Assembly: GCA_963767005.1 (NCBI GenBank)
Contig: CAVYCN010000007.1
Location: forward strand, 91,121-155,120
Origin: an uncultured Actinomycetes bacterium
GTDB taxonomy: Bacteria > Actinomycetota > Thermoleophilia > UBA2241
Length of the DNA stretch: 64,000 bases
Direction of reading: 5' to 3'
The position numbers and the translations under genes are program-made. Position 1 is the first letter of the stretch. Each line of letters begins with the position of its first letter. The notes below the pieces were generated by a model. It made no database searches and was not told where the DNA came from. It worked only from the letters and a program-made list of their open reading frames with translations. Of this stretch, positions 26,224 through 48,281 are shown one piece after another.

Positions 26224-27114
26224 TCAGCTGCCGCCCTTGCCGTCGGTCGCCATGGGGACGAGCCCACCCAGGTCGCCGATGACGTTGACGAGCTGCGTGT
26301 CGCCCGGCACGACGACCTTGCTGTTCTGGTACAGGGCGCGCTCGACGGCCTCGAGCTTGCGCAGCATCTGGGCGTTGCCCACGAAGTACTTGTCGGCCGC
26401 CTCGTTGACCAGCTGGATGGCCTGCGCCTCGCCCTGCGCCTCGAGGATCTTGGCCTGCCTGATGCCCTCGGCCTTCTTGATCTCGGCGCGCCGGGCGCCG
26501 TCGGCCTGGGTCTCGGTCGCGGTGGCGAAGTCGATCGCGGCGATCTTCTCGTTCTCGGCCTTCACGACCTTGTTCATGGTCTCCTGCACGTCGGGCGGCG
26601 GGTCGATCTCTTTGAGCTCGGTGCGCAGGATCTCGATGCCCCAGCTCGCCGTCTCGCTCAAAAGGGTGCCGCGCAGCTCCTCGTTGATCTTGCCGCGCTC
26701 GCTGTTGGCCGATTTCAGGGTCATGGTGCCGATGATGTTGCGCAGCGTGGTGCGCGAGAGGTTGACGATCTGCAGCTCGTAATTGGTGACGTTGTAGATC
26801 GAGGCCTTGACGTTCTCTTCGTCGGCTTTGACCTTGAGGTAGACCTGGGCGTCGACCTTGGCGTTTAAGTTGTCGTTGGTGATGATGGTCTGCGGCTGCG
26901 CCTCGACCAGGACCTCGCGGATGTCGACCTGGTACATGCGCTCGATGCCGTACGGGATGGTCAGGTGGATGCCGGGGTTGGCGTAGCGGTTGTACTTGCC
27001 CAGACGTTCCACGAGGCCACGGTGGGTGGGGCGTACGATCCTGATCCCGGACAGGATGGTGAACAGGACGAACAGGACGACGACCCCGACGATGACCCCT
27101 GCGATCCAACCCAT
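26224..27114 (-). CDS. SPFH/band 7 (stomatin-like) membrane protein
   Basis: N-terminal TM, GLVERLGKY, TTLRNIIG, WGIEILRTELKEIDPP; GAGGAGG SD. Confidence 0.92.
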   Translation of the reverse strand: MGWIAGVIVGVVVLFVLFTILSGIRIVRPTHRGLVERLGKYNRYANPGIHLTIPYGIERMYQVDIREVLVEAQPQTIITNDNLNAKVDAQVYLKVKADEENVKASIYNVTNYELQIVNLSRTTLRNIIGTMTLKSANSERGKINEELRGTLLSETASWGIEILRTELKEIDPPPDVQETMNKVVKAENEKIAAIDFATATETQADGARRAEIKKAEGIRQAKILEAQGEAQAIQLVNEAADKYFVGNAQMLRKLEAVERALYQNSKVVVPGDTQLVNVIGDLGGLVPMATDGKGGS

Positions 27115-27264: not shown

Positions 27265-28173
27265 CTAGCGCAGCACGCGGTTGGCGATCTCGAGCATCTT
27301 GGCCGGCAGCTCGGCGTGGTGGCGCACGCGGAACACCTCGCCGCGGCCCACGCCGGCGAGGCGTTCGCAGAGCGCCGGGTCCATCTTGTAGTCCTCGGTG
27401 AGCAGCACGTGCAGGCGGGGGAACGCGTCGGCCGCCGGCACGGGGTCGCCGCCGGCCGTCGAGACGCCGTCGGTGATCAGCAGGCCGGCCTTGCGCGGGT
27501 TGCGGCCACGCCGCACCTCGCGCCCGCCGAGGCGCAGGCCGGCCTCGATGTTCGTGTAGCCGCGGGCCGGCTCCGACAAGAGGCGGGTCACGATCTCCTC
27601 GGGGTCGTCGCGCTCCTCGAGGCGGGTGACGGCGCGCGCGACGCTCTCGAAGACCACGACCGACAGGTCCTCGGGGCGCAGCTTGAGGGCCAGGACGGCG
27701 GCCGCCACCGCGGCGATCGCGAGATTCTCGCCGGCCATCGACAGCGAGACGTCCATCATGAGGACGAGCTGCTGCTCGGTATCCTCGCGACGCTCGACGA
27801 TCCAGTCGTCACGCTCCGGGAACCGCTTGCCGGCGACGTTCTCGAGCGTCACTTCGACCTCGAGCTCGCCGCGGAACGGCTCGTCCATGACCTCGAGCAC
27901 CGGCCGCGTGGCGCGTCTGATCGGGCCGACCAGCCGCCAGGCGCGGCGTAGCACGGCGGCCGTGGCGATGCGGCGGGCGTAGGCCTTGAGCTCGCGGCTG
28001 CCCTGGGTGAGGCTCGTGTCGGTCAGGCGGGTGGCGACGGCCCAGCCGTCGACCGCGTCGGGCTCGACGCCGAGGCGCTCGGCCAGCACGACGTGCGCCT
28101 CGGCGTCGGTGAGCGGCGGCTCGGGCGGGCGGCCGCGCCAGGGCGCCGCGGGCACGCCGGCCGTCACGATCAT
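27265..28173 (-). CDS. VWA (MIDAS) domain protein; probably also the C-terminal part of a frameshift fusion with the upstream ATPase
   Basis: DVSLSM (DxSxS), GYTNI, LITDG. Confidence 0.85.
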   Translation of the reverse strand: MIVTAGVPAAPWRGRPPEPPLTDAEAHVVLAERLGVEPDAVDGWAVATRLTDTSLTQGSRELKAYARRIATAAVLRRAWRLVGPIRRATRPVLEVMDEPFRGELEVEVTLENVAGKRFPERDDWIVERREDTEQQLVLMMDVSLSMAGENLAIAAVAAAVLALKLRPEDLSVVVFESVARAVTRLEERDDPEEIVTRLLSEPARGYTNIEAGLRLGGREVRRGRNPRKAGLLITDGVSTAGGDPVPAADAFPRLHVLLTEDYKMDPALCERLAGVGRGEVFRVRHHAELPAKMLEIANRVLR

Positions 28174-28176
28174 GAC

Positions 28177-28215
28177 CGGCCGCCGCTCCCCGGCGGCGGC
28201 CGTCAGGCTTTTTTT
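28177..28215 (-). other. Putative -1 programmed frameshift signal
   Basis: CCA-AAA-AAA-GCC-TGA gives slippery A_AAA_AAA (28215-28209), a 6-nt spacer, then CGGCCGCCGC-CGGGGA-GCGGCGGCCG. The -1 frame is open into the VWA ORF. Confidence 0.7.
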
Positions 28216-29036
28216 GGCGCGGCGGCGACGAGCTCGTCGAGGACGTCGGGCAGCGGCGCGTCGGTCTCGTCGCGCAGCTCGACGCGCGTGGGCAGCGCGG
28301 CGCCGGCGGCGCGGCGCAGGGCGTCGGGGGCGTCGGTGCGGGCGGCGATCGCCACCATGGCGATCGCCGCCCGCACCGACGCCCCCTTGCGAAAGCGCGG
28401 GTCGCTGCGTGTCGCCCTGGTCACGGCCACGGCCGCCTGCACGAGCTCGAGGTCGTCGCAGCCGGTCTCGCGGCGCACGATCTCGCTCTCTTCGTCGGCA
28501 TCCTGATAGTCGAGGCCGACGTGCTCGAAGCGATCGCGCAGCGCCTCGGACAGGTGCCCCGTGGCGATGTACTCGACCGGGTTCTGGGTGGCTACCACCT
28601 GAAAGCCGGGCGCCGCCCGCACGTCGCCGATGCGCGGCACGATCAGCAGGTGCTCGTCGAGCGCCGGCAGCAGCACGTTCTGCACGGCCTCGGGCATGCG
28701 GTTCAGCTCGTTCAGGAAGAGCACGGCGCCGGCGCGCATGGCCTGCACGAGGGGGCCGGCGAAGAAGGTATCCTCGGTGTAGCCCTGGGCCAGCACGAGC
28801 GGCGGGTCGAACCAGCCGGTGAGCTTGCTCTCGGAGTAGCGGTCGTCGCCGTCGACGCGCACCAACGACCGGCCGAGGTGCTCGCAGACGGCGAGCGCCA
28901 CCGTCGTCTTGCCCACGCCGACGGCGCCCTCGAGCAGCAGGTGGCGGCCGCTCTCGAGCACGGCCAGAGACATGGCGAGCTCGTCGTCGCGGCCGACGAT
29001 GCCGTGCGCGCGCTTGATCTCGGCGATGGGGCCCAC
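28203..29036 (-). CDS. MoxR-family AAA+ ATPase (AAA_5)
   Basis: HLLLEGAVGVGKT, LFLNELNR, VATQNP, LSEALRDRF, GASVRAAI. Probably leaderless (TATGCT 6 nt before GTG). Confidence 0.9.
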   Translation of the reverse strand: MGPIAEIKRAHGIVGRDDELAMSLAVLESGRHLLLEGAVGVGKTTVALAVCEHLGRSLVRVDGDDRYSESKLTGWFDPPLVLAQGYTEDTFFAGPLVQAMRAGAVLFLNELNRMPEAVQNVLLPALDEHLLIVPRIGDVRAAPGFQVVATQNPVEYIATGHLSEALRDRFEHVGLDYQDADEESEIVRRETGCDDLELVQAAVAVTRATRSDPRFRKGASVRAAIAMVAIAARTDAPDALRRAAGAALPTRVELRDETDAPLPDVLDELVAAAPKKA

Positions 29037-29073: not shown

Positions 29074-29418
29074 TCAGGCGGCGCCCACGACGATGCTGAC
29101 CACCATCACGGCGAGCACGGCGACGGTCACGGCGACGAAGCGCCAGTCGCGCGCCGCCGCGAAGGCCACGATCGAGCCGACGACGCGGATGAAAGGCGTG
29201 AGGATCAGGGCAAGCAGGCCGAGCGAGTAGAAGCCGGGCGCCCGCAGATGCGCGGCGGCGCGCAAGGCGGCCGGCGCTTTCAGGCTGAGGACCGTCAGGT
29301 CGCCGCGCCCCACCGCGGTGAGGACGAGGCCGACGAGCAGCAACGCCAGGCCCACGGCCACGCCCACGGCGAGCGTGTGGTGCACGACGCGGTCGACGTC
29401 TGCCGTGCGCGCGTCCAC
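29074..29418 (-). CDS. DUF1634 membrane protein
   Basis: LGLLALILTPFIRVV motif; directly follows TauE as is usual. Confidence 0.8.
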   Translation of the reverse strand: MDARTADVDRVVHHTLAVGVAVGLALLLVGLVLTAVGRGDLTVLSLKAPAALRAAAHLRAPGFYSLGLLALILTPFIRVVGSIVAFAAARDWRFVAVTVAVLAVMVVSIVVGAA

Positions 29419-30225
29419 CTACACCCCGATCGCCTTGAGAGCCATCTGCACGGCGAGCACGAGCAGCAAGACCTCGAACACCCGCCGCAGGACCGCCGCG
29501 CTCACATGGCCGGAGACCCGCGAACCGAGCTGGGCGCCGACCAGGATGCCGAGCGCGCTCGGCACGGCGTAGCGCGGCTCGACCAGGCCGCGGCCGAAGA
29601 AGATGAGCGCGCCGGTCGCGGCGGTCACCCCGATCATGAGGTTGCTCGTGGCGATCGCCGCCCGCAGCGGCACGCGCATGAGCAGGGTCATCACCGGCAC
29701 CTTGATCACGCCGCCGCCCACGCCGAGCAGCCCCGACACGTTGCCGGCCACGTAGCTCATGGCGAGGCCGGCCGGGACGTGGTCGACGCCGTAGGCGACC
29801 TTGTCGCCGCCGGGCTCGGTGAACGAGCCGGCCAGCACCGAGCCCGGCGTGGAGGGCAGCGGGTCGGCCGGCTTGCGCTCCATCGAGATCAGCACGTAGA
29901 CGAGTACCACGGTGAACACGGCGAAGATGAAGCGCCCGCTCACGAGGATGGCGGTCACGCCGCCGGTGAGCGCGCCGACCGTGGTCGCGACCTCGAGCGT
30001 CATGCCCAGGCGCGTGTTGGTAAAGCCGCGCGCCACGTAGACGATCTGCGAGGCCGACGAGGTGACGACGACGCAGACGAGGCTCGTGCCGATCGCGTTC
30101 TTGATCGGCACGTGCAGGAACAGCGTGAGGATCGGCACGATCAGCAGGCCGCCGCCCACCCCGAGCATGCTGCCCAGCATGCCGACGAGCACAGCGACGG
30201 CGACGAGCACGAGGAAGGTGGTCAT
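29419..30225 (-). CDS. TauE/SafE sulfite exporter family permease
   Basis: GSMLGVGGG, AIGTSL, SGLLGVGGGVIKVP, ATSNLMIGVTA. Confidence 0.9.
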   Translation of the reverse strand: MTTFLVLVAVAVLVGMLGSMLGVGGGLLIVPILTLFLHVPIKNAIGTSLVCVVVTSSASQIVYVARGFTNTRLGMTLEVATTVGALTGGVTAILVSGRFIFAVFTVVLVYVLISMERKPADPLPSTPGSVLAGSFTEPGGDKVAYGVDHVPAGLAMSYVAGNVSGLLGVGGGVIKVPVMTLLMRVPLRAAIATSNLMIGVTAATGALIFFGRGLVEPRYAVPSALGILVGAQLGSRVSGHVSAAVLRRVFEVLLLVLAVQMALKAIGV

Positions 30226-30907: not shown

Positions 30908-32677
30908 TCAGAAACCGTACTCGAAGGGGATGTACGTGTGCAGTCCGAGGGTCGTCGGCTGTGTGGCCGGCGGCACGATGGCGTCGTAGACCTGCTCGGC
31001 GTGGGCCTGCGCGTCGGCGAAGCAGGTGGCCGCGTTGCAGGTGTCGAGCAGCTTCTCGTTGCCGCTCGCGCTGCCGGCCTCGGTCGTCCAGTTCGCGCCC
31101 TGGTCGTACTCGTAGGTGGCCTGGCTGAAGATGGTGTTGAGCGCCGCGAAGCTGGTGTCGCTGTAGCTCTTCCACATCAGCTTCTGGTAGGCCCAGGCGA
31201 CGTCGCGCTCGGCCGCGGACTGGGCGGCGCTCACCATCGCGTCGGGATCGGACGCGAGCGCGAGCTGGTAGAACGTATGGGTACCGGCGACCTCGTACAC
31301 GTCGTCCTCGGGCCCGGCCTCGTAGGGCAGCCCCACTCGCCCGGCCGAGCCGGTGCAGATGTACATGACGCCGCCGTCGCCGTCGGCCGGCTGGGAGATC
31401 GTGAGGAAGCCGGCGTTCAGGTTACCCGGGTTGCCGAAGTACTTGGCCTTGGTCTGCCGGTACTGCTGCAGGTTCCAGGGATCGGCCGGGATCACGCCGT
31501 AGTGGCGGAACATCATCTCGGCGAAGCTCAGGTCGACGTGCCCGGCGTACTCATGGAACATGTTGTACATCGTCTGGTTGGTGCGCACGCTGGCAAGCTG
31601 CATGTCGCTCTGGCTGTCGGGCGGGGCCGACATGTCGGGATCGAGCGCCCAGCCGCCGTGCGGGTAGAACTTGCCGGGCTTGCCGTTCAGGCTCGCCGCG
31701 CCGTTGGTGAAGAAGCAGTTGCGCGAGTAGATGAAATCGCCCTCGCCGAAGTCGCCCGGCTTGCGAACGGTCTGGAACGCGGCCGACGACTCGATCGTGA
31801 AGGCGTTGCCTTTGACGTCGGAGACCGTCATGTTCCAGATGCCCGACGGATGGAACGACAGCCACATGTCCCTGGCGTCGGCCGCGCTGTCGGCGAAACG
31901 CAGGATGTGCGGGATCAGGCCAGCCTTGAGACCGTATCCTGCCTGAGCGTAGTCCACGTCGCGCCAGGCGCCGCCGAGGTTGCCGCTCGTCGAGACGCCC
32001 TTGTCGTTGATGCCCGGCATGACCGGGATCGCCGCGAGCTGGCCGGGCTGCGTGACGTTGATGTAGGCGTTGCCGGTCGCCGGGTAGGCGACGATGGCGA
32101 CGTAGTCGTTGTTGCCGAAGTCGCCCCACGGCGGGTCCATCTCCTGGCCCGTGATGAGGCTGCCGTCGGTGGTCTCCTTGCCCCAGGCGGCCCAGGCCGA
32201 GCAGGTCGGCGGCAGGGTCTCACTCGAGCTGCCCGACGGCTCGGTCCCGGGATGGGCAGTGGTGCCCACGTAGTTGGCGAGCACCTCGGCGTACGACAGC
32301 GGCACGCCCGCATCGGTGGCCGCCTGCGCCATGCCCTTGAACATGTCGATGTACTCGGGCGTGTACTTCTCGATGTACCACTGGTAAGCCTTGAGCGCGA
32401 CGAGCTGCTGATCGCTGAAGCCCCCGGGCACCTGCATGGCCTTGAGGACCGAGCGGCCGAAGAGCTTGTCGACCTGCTGGTAGTATTGGAAGCCCATGTC
32501 GTAGTCGGAGCCCTGGAGCACGATCACCGGCAACACGCTCGGCGGCACCGCCAGGTCCGACCGCGGCACGGTCGGCTCCGCAGCGCCCGCCGGCGCGGCG
32601 CAAACCACGACCAGGAGACAGACACTCGCCAGTGCCACGGTCAGTCCCCACAGCCCGCGACGTCTCCCCTCACCCAT
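30908..32677 (-). CDS. Secreted C45-family (acyl-CoA:6-APA acyltransferase-like) Ntn hydrolase
   Basis: Signal peptide ending APAGA, LQGSDYDMGFQY, candidate autoproteolytic Cys in T-CSAWAAWG..T.DG..ITG, GINDKGV. Confidence 0.7.
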   Translation of the reverse strand: MGEGRRRGLWGLTVALASVCLLVVVCAAPAGAAEPTVPRSDLAVPPSVLPVIVLQGSDYDMGFQYYQQVDKLFGRSVLKAMQVPGGFSDQQLVALKAYQWYIEKYTPEYIDMFKGMAQAATDAGVPLSYAEVLANYVGTTAHPGTEPSGSSSETLPPTCSAWAAWGKETTDGSLITGQEMDPPWGDFGNNDYVAIVAYPATGNAYINVTQPGQLAAIPVMPGINDKGVSTSGNLGGAWRDVDYAQAGYGLKAGLIPHILRFADSAADARDMWLSFHPSGIWNMTVSDVKGNAFTIESSAAFQTVRKPGDFGEGDFIYSRNCFFTNGAASLNGKPGKFYPHGGWALDPDMSAPPDSQSDMQLASVRTNQTMYNMFHEYAGHVDLSFAEMMFRHYGVIPADPWNLQQYRQTKAKYFGNPGNLNAGFLTISQPADGDGGVMYICTGSAGRVGLPYEAGPEDDVYEVAGTHTFYQLALASDPDAMVSAAQSAAERDVAWAYQKLMWKSYSDTSFAALNTIFSQATYEYDQGANWTTEAGSASGNEKLLDTCNAATCFADAQAHAEQVYDAIVPPATQPTTLGLHTYIPFEYGF

Positions 32678-32712
32678 GTGACCCCCCTTGTCCTTGTGGC
32701 CGACGATCCGTT

Positions 32713-32752
32713 CGAACGCAATACGGTACGATATACCGAACGATGTACCGTA
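32713..32752. promoter_or_regulatory. Putative TetR operators between divergent genes
   Basis: TACGGTAC (32722-32729) and GTACCGTA (32745-32752) inverted repeat, with internal CGGTA-N5-TACCG palindrome. Confidence 0.55.
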
Positions 32753-32774
32753 ATTTACTGAGAGCCCCCTGAGA

Positions 32775-33413
32775 ATGTCAAGGGCCGGACGCCCCCGTGT
32801 CCACCTGCACCTGAGCCGCGAGGCGATCGCCCACGCCGGCCTCGCCCTGGTCGACCGCGAAGGGCTCGACGCCCTCACCCTGCGCAACCTGGCGCGCGAG
32901 CTTGAAGTCGGCACCACGACCCTGTACGGGCATGTGCGCACCCGCGATGAGATCGTCGCGGACGTCGTCGGCCTGCTGCTCGGCGAGGTCGACACCACTC
33001 CACACCCCGAGGAGAGGTGGGACGAGTCCCTGCGCCGCGTGGCGCACTCGCTGCGCAAGGTCGCCCACCGCCACCCCGCCGCCTTCACGCTCGTCGCCCT
33101 GGCGCCGGTCGACGAGGCGCCCGTGGTCGACTACGCACGCACCATGGCAGAGCTGAGTCGCGCAGGCGGCCTGAATGAGCAGCGCTTCATCGAGTCATGG
33201 CAGGTGATCGACGCCTTCCTGACCGGGTTCCTGCTCATGGAGACCGCGGCGCTCACGCGCGCCGCTCAGCGTGCGGGAGGCGACACCGGTCCGGCGACGA
33301 GTGACGAGTTCCGCCGCGGCATGGCCGAGGTCCACTCCGACGAAGCCTTCGCGGCGGCGCTCGAGGTGGTCATCGCCGGCATCCGCGCGACGCGCATCGG
33401 TCCGGCGCGCTGA
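32775..33413 (+). CDS. TetR/AcrR-family regulator (TetR_C type)
   Basis: LSREAIAHAGLALVDREGLDALTLRNLARELEVGTTTLYGHV. Confidence 0.9.
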   Translation: MSRAGRPRVHLHLSREAIAHAGLALVDREGLDALTLRNLARELEVGTTTLYGHVRTRDEIVADVVGLLLGEVDTTPHPEERWDESLRRVAHSLRKVAHRHPAAFTLVALAPVDEAPVVDYARTMAELSRAGGLNEQRFIESWQVIDAFLTGFLLMETAALTRAAQRAGGDTGPATSDEFRRGMAEVHSDEAFAAALEVVIAGIRATRIGPAR

Positions 33414-33500: not shown

Positions 33501-33586
33501 TGGTGCCGGAGGTGGGACTCGAACCCACACGGGCGCTGGCCCGGGCGATTTTAAGTCGCCGGCGTCTACCGTTCCGCCACTCCGGC
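33501..33586 (-). tRNA. tRNA-Leu(UAA)
   Basis: GCCGGAG acceptor stem, anticodon loop CT-TAA-AA, long variable arm, GTTCGAGTC T-loop, encoded CCA. Confidence 0.95.
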
Positions 33587-48207: not shown

Positions 48208-48281
48208 TGGCTGGGGCGGGAGGATTCGAACCTCCGGTCACGGGACCAAAACCCGTTGCCTTGCCACTTGGCCACGCCCCA
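48208..48281 (-). tRNA. tRNA-Gln(UUG)
   Basis: TGGGGCG acceptor, anticodon loop TT-TTG-GT, GTTCGAATC, CCA end; usual position before glmU. Confidence 0.95.

Follow-up and report, generated by a model that had tools for sequence, protein, structure and literature searches.

A conserved frameshift signal predicted to fuse a MoxR-class AAA+ ATPase to its VWA partner in a Thermoleophilia bacterium and its relatives

The window analysed here is a stretch of 64,000 nucleotides from the genome of an uncultured Actinomycetes bacterium of the Thermoleophilia (GenBank assembly GCA_963767005.1, contig CAVYCN010000007.1, positions 91,121 to 155,120). Its minus strand carries two adjacent open reading frames (ORFs) that are annotated as separate genes and are predicted here to be joined by a -1 frameshift. 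ORF1 (28203..29036, GTG start assumed) codes for a MoxR-class (NorQ/CbbQ/GvpN-like) AAA+ ATPase of 277 aa that ends in APKKA and features the Walker A motif GAVGVGKT, the Walker B motif LFLNE and a Pfam AAA_5 match (E 2e-21). ORF2 as annotated (27265..28173, 302 aa) codes for a helical region and a von Willebrand factor A (VWA) domain (VWA_CoxE, E 7.9e-10) with an intact metal ion-dependent adhesion site (MIDAS; DVSLS, T, D). The 3′ end of the ATPase ORF reads GCG CCA AAA AAA GCC TGA. It holds a slippery heptamer A_AAA_AAA (28209..28215), followed by G, and a 6-nt spacer, GCC TGA (28203..28208), that includes the zero-frame stop codon (TGA 28205-28203). Immediately downstream lies a predicted stimulatory hairpin (28177..28202) of ten perfect G-C pairs (arms 28202-28193 and 28186-28177) closed by a 6-nt loop. 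No stop codon interrupts the -1 frame between 29034 and the end of the VWA ORF (stop at 27267-27265), although an open -1 frame is by itself weak evidence at 71% GC, and past the heptamer it reads SLTAAAGERRPVMIVTAG. About 40 codons of this frame (28087..28209), among them a non-conserved ATG at 28173, form a linker between the ATPase and the helical and VWA module. The original prediction, made from the letters of the DNA alone, had named this ATPase terminus, the run of seven A (A7), the in-phase heptamer, the 6-nt gap and the 10-bp stem at 28202-28177, and all of them are present. The layout likewise predicts the two products then proposed, the 277-aa ATPase and a fusion of 276 + 314 = 590 aa of which ORF2 is the C-terminal half.

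The two AAA codons at the heptamer are the sole ones in both ORFs, where AAG is found four and six times. Their singularity in AAG-preferring DNA, also part of the prediction, holds at the scale of the genome: the AAA:AAG ratio in its long ORFs is 354:8387, and only five A7/T7 runs, and no A8, occur in its 3,436,494 bases (71% GC). A genome-wide filter for a change of coding frame retained four of 923 slippery heptamers. In two of these, genes simply overlap and an ATG is present; the other two are A7 sites, one at the ATPase-VWA junction and the second between iscU and mnmA (see below). The ATPase-VWA gene is single-copy in this genome, which has two tRNA-Lys(CTT) genes and one tRNA-Lys(TTT) gene. 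The occurrence of two tRNA-Lys species means that the choice of AAA, not AAG, as A-site codon fits the rule that AAG shifts poorly where a second lysine tRNA is present (PMC5009743, in part).

Homologous loci were gathered to a total of 109, holding 89 ATPase hits; a scan of metagenomes with one fused protein as query gave 11 loci. The ATPase is split from a VWA ORF located in the -1 frame in 61 of the 89 hits. Eighteen others are fused in frame (one is a partial duplicate and one, L047, an upstream frame error), eight have no VWA ORF (five at contig ends, three standalone), one is split in frame 0 (L083, also an upstream frame error) and one has the VWA in +1; the heptamer site is intact in both L047 and L083. 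An in-phase X_XXY_YYZ heptamer was found no more than 11 codons before the stop codon in 60 of the 61 -1 loci, while the control gave 78 occurrences in 30,176 codon positions (0.26% per codon). Heptamer and -1 phase, the features whose conservation the prediction called for, are thus retained in ATPases that diverge to ~41% identity. The 60 heptamers are A_AAA_AAN (36), C_CCA_AAA (23) and G_GGT_TTT (one), that is, 59 have AAN in the A site. Record titles assign the closest kin to Thermoleophilia and others to Chloroflexota, Verrucomicrobiota, Bdellovibrionota, Myxococcota, Sumerlaeota and archaea; outside the family of the window the gene is patchy, being found in 6 of 301 genomes of one phylum sample and 6 of 66 of another. 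Within this Thermoleophilia family the 41 -1 loci carry A_AAA_AAA (18) or C_CCA_AAA (23), invariably followed by G, and exactly one codon separates heptamer and stop in 38 of them. Both sequences are among the shift-prone motifs in E. coli (PMC4066793, in part). A distant member, L068, combines a G_GGT_TTT heptamer and a short hairpin with an ATG preceded by GGAGG 20 nt past the stop.

The position of the hairpin is also conserved. A hairpin of -8 kcal/mol or below starting 5-7 nt past the heptamer is found in 32 of 40 family loci (the 41 less one identical copy) versus 95 of 1360 control windows. The mean energy is -1.1 for a start at 5 nt and -13.1 for one at 6 nt, exactly where the profile has its peak. 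The stem is identical and the loop variable in 11 same-genus kin; stems of different sequence pair at the site in other genera, as read by eye. A hairpin next to an A7 run could instead be the intrinsic terminator of a transcript from the opposite strand: a terminator-like site is flagged on the plus strand (28192-28204) and other A6/A7 runs of the genome adjoin hairpins between genes. Such a terminator would need neither a fixed reading phase nor the loss of the motif in fused genes, its 10-bp stem would stand 6 nt away from the T run, kin with C_CCA_AAA offer only T4, and there is no conserved convergent gene, all of which makes this reading extremely unlikely. As for an upstream stimulator resembling a Shine-Dalgarno (SD) sequence, GAGG-type words occur at varying places in 23 of 59 loci, a count that has no control, and none is present in the window; such a stimulator is not claimed here.

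MoxR systems as a rule encode their AAA and VWA proteins in separate genes, and the two ORFs might accordingly be ordinary, translationally coupled genes next to an incidental A run. The VWA protein would then start at ATG 28173, which has a GGGGAG 12 nt upstream, or at a GTG located 116 nt past the stop and preceded by GAGG; the archaeal locus L105 is built in this way. The ATG is, however, kept in none of the 11 same-genus kin (ATC, AGC, AGT or CGC is found instead), no start codon occupies a conserved place, and the SD-like GGGGAG is the loop of the 10-bp stem. Nor would coupling of two genes require the heptamer found in nearly all -1 loci to be lost from natural fusions, most of which carry no slippery signal. 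We consider two coupled genes very unlikely.

Natural fusions, one of the searches proposed along with the original prediction, are plentiful: at least 219 homologues are longer than the ATPase, and 118 of the 120 listed are AAA+VWA proteins. On a quick tree, fusions occupy scattered positions, with 15 changes of state of which at least seven are forced by strong branches. Among short homologues, the 120 best of 2838 hits all have KK (116) or PK (four) in their last 14 residues, compared to 11 of 118 fusions at the matching place and 86 of 1920 internal windows; this count supports the site but is somewhat biased, as the query profile itself ends in KK. An AlphaFold model of one natural fusion (P0013; pLDDT, the predicted local distance difference test score, 89.4 with a 50-row alignment, 35.9 in a single-sequence run) shows an AAA part that ends in a helix (262-276) and is connected by a disordered linker to a helical and VWA module. 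The slip site falls where this last AAA helix ends, ahead of the disordered linker, and the VWA ORF of the window matches the C-terminal half of P0013 at 51% identity over 273 aa. All 35 family genomes that carry the gene (two partial matches left out) are able to give both forms. Twenty-nine have frameshift copies only, two a frameshift and a fused copy, one a frameshift copy and a distant standalone ATPase, and one a standalone and a fused gene that are 78% identical; the remaining two have frame errors upstream of an intact site. Little weight can be given to the fused and standalone pair of genome G069, 100% identical over 828 nt and a possible assembly artefact. Both products thus seem to be needed in the family, as far as gene content tells.

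The same pair of products could arise by slippage of RNA polymerase, an extra A being present in part of the mRNA. A T followed by A9 or A10 forms the site in 16 of the 19 -1 loci outside the family, in none of which a hairpin was found, and long A runs occur in all three phases, a pattern that PMC3711429 (in part) reads as polymerase slippage. In L040 (4818-4828, A11) and L062 (A9) the long product is in frame 0 and the stop is one shift away, while an A11 run in L104 (2373-2383) is in the +1 frame: either the switch can act with reversed polarity or the runs are assembly errors, L040 and L104 being possible homopolymer errors. Polymerase slippage is the likelier mechanism in non-family branches with long A runs, and probably holds for those with A9-A11. 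In the window the run is only A7, and no more than four A's are available in 23 of the 41 family loci; a polymerase mechanism also gives no role to a 3′ hairpin placed at a ribosome-length spacer. Thresholds in PMC3711429 (in part) put four A's below polymerase slippage, and tandem ribosomal slippage is therefore inferred for the window's family from C_CCA_AAA; tandem tRNA re-pairing is possible on both heptamers. For the window, polymerase slippage is quite unlikely. The original wording, "ribosomal or transcriptional slippage", can thus be narrowed, with the ribosome favoured at this junction and the polymerase suggested only for the T-A9/A10 runs elsewhere.

An assembly error that hides a true A8, or a broken gene, would leave an ordinary gene in two pieces. 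Homopolymer or frame errors do exist in two related assemblies (L047 and L083). Nevertheless 61 loci from many assemblies share the phase, both halves retain their catalytic and MIDAS residues, and contigs from two independent DNA sequencing runs cross the heptamer without indel. These spanning contigs are those of relatives only (best share among the runs checked, 0.26), and A8, the outcome that would have made this a single fused gene, was not seen in them; one RNA run gave no contig across the heptamer. Conservation effectively refutes this explanation.

The best structural matches of the ATPase (Foldseek) are NorQ (E 7.7e-17, TM score 0.81) and CbbQ (E 6.3e-16), and its best non-midasin sequence matches in the PDB are of NorQ/CbbQ type. 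Neither score nor clade places it in a named MoxR subfamily (MoxR proper, NorQ/CbbQ, GvpN). The top NCBIfam model is GvpN (TIGR02640), at 99.2 bits far under its cut-off of 266.8, and no gas vesicle genes were found among the neighbours scanned. AAA_3 gives 52 bits, compared to ~200 for MoxR proper. The BchD-ChlD model reaches 25.5 bits on the ATPase and 17.8-46.9 on the fusions, relative to a cut-off of 499.55. ChlI/ChlD (a clade of its own with a long stem), MoxR proper and the NorQ type each form a group in a tree built from 71 ATPases, and the window family lies outside them; on quick trees neither the chelatases nor MoxR proper stand out as its nearest group (approximately unbiased (AU) test, 0.69 and 0.68). 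The MIDAS residues (DxSxS, T, D), present in the window, and the arginine finger and sensor residues are invariant in 50 fusions. The unusual Walker B noticed in the prediction is a family trait: hhhhNE, not the canonical hhhhDE, is found in the window and in at least 90% of these fused homologues. Neither CobN/ChlH (PF02514) nor TIGR02442 has a match in the genome of the window, which is 100% complete by markers. By these scores and groupings we assign the protein to an unnamed MoxR-class (NorQ/CbbQ/GvpN-like) family distinct from ChlD.

What the sequences show is a conserved layout, a domain boundary that coincides with the site, and natural fusions. The junction is, on this evidence, a real and conserved recoding signal, expected to work like that of fs-chlD. 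A ribosomal -1 frameshift in one recoded gene, yielding the ATPase and an ATPase-VWA fusion, is very probably its function. Most ribosomes would stop at the TGA and release the 277-aa MoxR-class AAA+ ATPase, while a minority, predicted to be stalled by the hairpin 6 nt downstream, would slip by -1 on A_AAA_AAA and synthesize the 590-aa ATPase-linker-VWA protein. Short and long forms may then co-assemble into one hexamer with about one tethered VWA, by analogy to NorQ6-NorD and ChlI/ChlD. One VWA partner engages a hexamer in NorQD (PMC13036017, in part), so a minority long product would give approximately one VWA per ring. The complex would remodel a client or load it with metal.

The closest precedent is fs-chlD (Kuznetsov et al. 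2022, PMC9227772, in part), described also in carriers without the large subunit, in which one gene yields a short AAA+ and a long AAA-linker-VWA protein by a -1 shift near the stop codon. In each of the ten chlD-type junctions read, out of 15, A_AAA_AAA lies 1-18 codons ahead of the stop and the VWA is in -1; duplication into a short and a long gene is found in both fs-chlD and the window family. Chelatase cassettes shifted at 10-63% (Antonov et al. 2013, PMC3711429, in part), and the 10% value, measured in E. coli, belongs to a chlD cassette in which A_AAA_AAA precedes GCC TGA and the 3′ part is GC-rich. The window family differs in its ATPase, which is not ChlI/ChlD (chelatase ATPases score 7-36 bits on its profile), in the C_CCA_AAA variant and in a genome without CobN/ChlH match; the AU test (0.69) neither supports nor rejects descent of this shift and that of fs-chlD from one ancient event. 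NorQ-NorD and CbbQ-CbbO (PMC13036017, in part) share with the window a NorQ/CbbQ-type fold and an intact MIDAS. They are encoded by separate genes with the VWA not fused to the ATPase, and the window protein departs from NorQ/CbbQ by the N for D in its Walker B and by having no match to CbbQ_C. An A-rich heptamer with a 3′ structure 5-8 nt downstream is also known from dnaX and IS3-family elements (PMC4066793, in part), and dnaX/IS3-type shifts have ribosomal and polymerase versions depending on lineage (PMC3711429, in part). In E. coli dnaX the shift, on A_AAA_AAG, yields the short product, unlike the window where it would yield the long one with AAA in the A site. Literature searches retrieved no paper on the window family, which may nonetheless be listed in the supplement of PMC3711429. 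The parts of PMC3711429 and PMC5009743 drawn on here mention neither MoxR nor Willebrand, and the corresponding part of a cobaltochelatase preprint (10.64898/2026.10.09.757910) does not mention frameshifting. The novelty first claimed is then that of the family, the layout being the published fs-chlD signal and the mechanism not new.

Several observations weigh against a ribosomal frameshift as described, or limit its reach. The 10-bp stem of the window is present in the minimum free energy structure, yet the 91-nt region folds no better than shuffled sequences (z -1.02), and the hairpin gains credibility only through its fixed position in relatives. No simple hairpin lies at 5-7 nt in eight of the 40 family loci and in any of the 19 outside loci. 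RNAalifold run on 27 ungapped junctions gave no consensus pairs, since stem lengths differ, and covariation was judged by eye only. The -1 locus that lacks a heptamer is the archaeal L105, with its own SD and ATG. Five distant genomes (L088, L106-L109) have as sole match a fused gene without heptamer, so the short form is not required everywhere. Related loci share ancestry and are not independent samples. An ATG, GTG or TTG in the VWA frame precedes the conserved core in most loci (none in three of 59) and a start codon with an SD-like word is found in ten of 59; separate initiation of the VWA protein may be an additional route. Finally, gene neighbours are not conserved and vary by lineage.

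The second A7 site left by the genome-wide filter lies on the minus strand of contig G000:C2, near 514947, where iscU ends in A_AAA_AAA-G and mnmA follows in -1 without a start codon. The same -1 junction is found in 22 of 28 family loci (L229, L233-L260), with A_AAA_AAA-G in 15 and C_CCA_AAA-G in seven. The first MnmA motif has no start codon at a distance of up to 20 codons in 19 of these 22, but does have one in four of the six loci without heptamer. A simple hairpin was seen at only one of the 22 junctions. This is likely, from its arrangement, a second programmed frameshift, with IscU and IscU-MnmA as products, and we count a second junction with the same two heptamers as support for the ATPase-VWA frameshift. 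No title on the iscU-mnmA junction appeared in the literature listing. MnmA thiolates tRNA-Lys(UUU). Because thiolation of tRNA-Lys dampens frameshifting in lambda (PMC3296357, in part), feedback by MnmA on its own synthesis is conceivable.

A sister subfamily in Actinomycetes was inspected at 32 junctions: 12 in -1, nine fused and 11 in the same frame. The same-frame junctions (L263 7880-7895 and L264 7877-7892, both on Rhodococcus plasmids, L275-L277, L283, L286, L288, L291, L292 and L294) all have the context CC(C/G) GGT TGA AG. The VWA sequence follows right after the ATPase stop, and protein similarity extends upstream of the annotated ATG, which makes these junctions candidates for UGA readthrough. 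Among the -1 junctions (L265-L273), three have G_GGG_GGA, four G GGG GAA, and five of 12 neither. Taken jointly, these cases might reflect a strong selection for a bare ATPase plus an ATPase-VWA protein, reached by four solutions: hairpin-driven -1 frameshifting, poly-A slippage, in-frame UGA readthrough and gene duplication. In the Thermoleophilia family, the shifts on rare AAA at ATPase-VWA and iscU-mnmA would in addition both respond to tRNA-Lys(UUU) thiolation, acting as a sulfur/Fe-S sensor with MnmA feedback. This joint reading is speculative and, in our estimate, rather unlikely.

To our knowledge, few non-mobile bacterial genes use programmed frameshifting. The junctions described here would add to recoding a bacterial and archaeal family that numbers, at E 1e-60, 2838 sequence clusters. 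Its annotation as two genes would miss the long protein and invent a start for the VWA ORF. The trick known from chlD would extend to a chaperone-type MoxR ATPase, a known mechanism in a new family, and provide a handle on the number of adaptors per ring that is needed in MoxR/VWA machines. A_AAA_AAA and C_CCA_AAA replace each other within this one family, which also has long A runs, fused genes and duplicated ones; together they form a natural series for comparing recoding mechanisms.

Around the recoded gene, and outside it, TauE and DUF1634 genes lie upstream (29074..30225) and an SPFH/Band 7 gene downstream (26224..27114), both on the minus strand. They adjoin it in close kin only (11 loci), and the functional link with TauE-DUF1634 or SPFH entertained in the original prediction is rejected as local synteny. 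In L048-L051, L055, L056 and L067 (one clade plus one locus) the gene follows right after two lysine 5,6-aminomutase genes, and a reactivase role is possible in that branch. A DUF2284 metal-binding gene is directly upstream in L045, L071 and L074, from two phyla, and DUF2284 is fused to the ATPase in the database proteins P0001 and P0053. Mycofactocin SDR genes stand beside the locus on two plasmids; like the aminomutase and DUF2284 genes, they recur but are bound to lineages. L089 (genome G044) adjoins pyrrolysine methylamine methyltransferase genes. In the whole genome of the window ARAGORN calls a tRNA-Pyl (CTA) and a tRNA-SeC. The window also contains a 726-aa ORF, apparently secreted and without Pfam match (30908-33088, minus strand), and the genes of tRNA-Leu(TAA) (33501-33586) and tRNA-Gln(TTG) (48208-48281).

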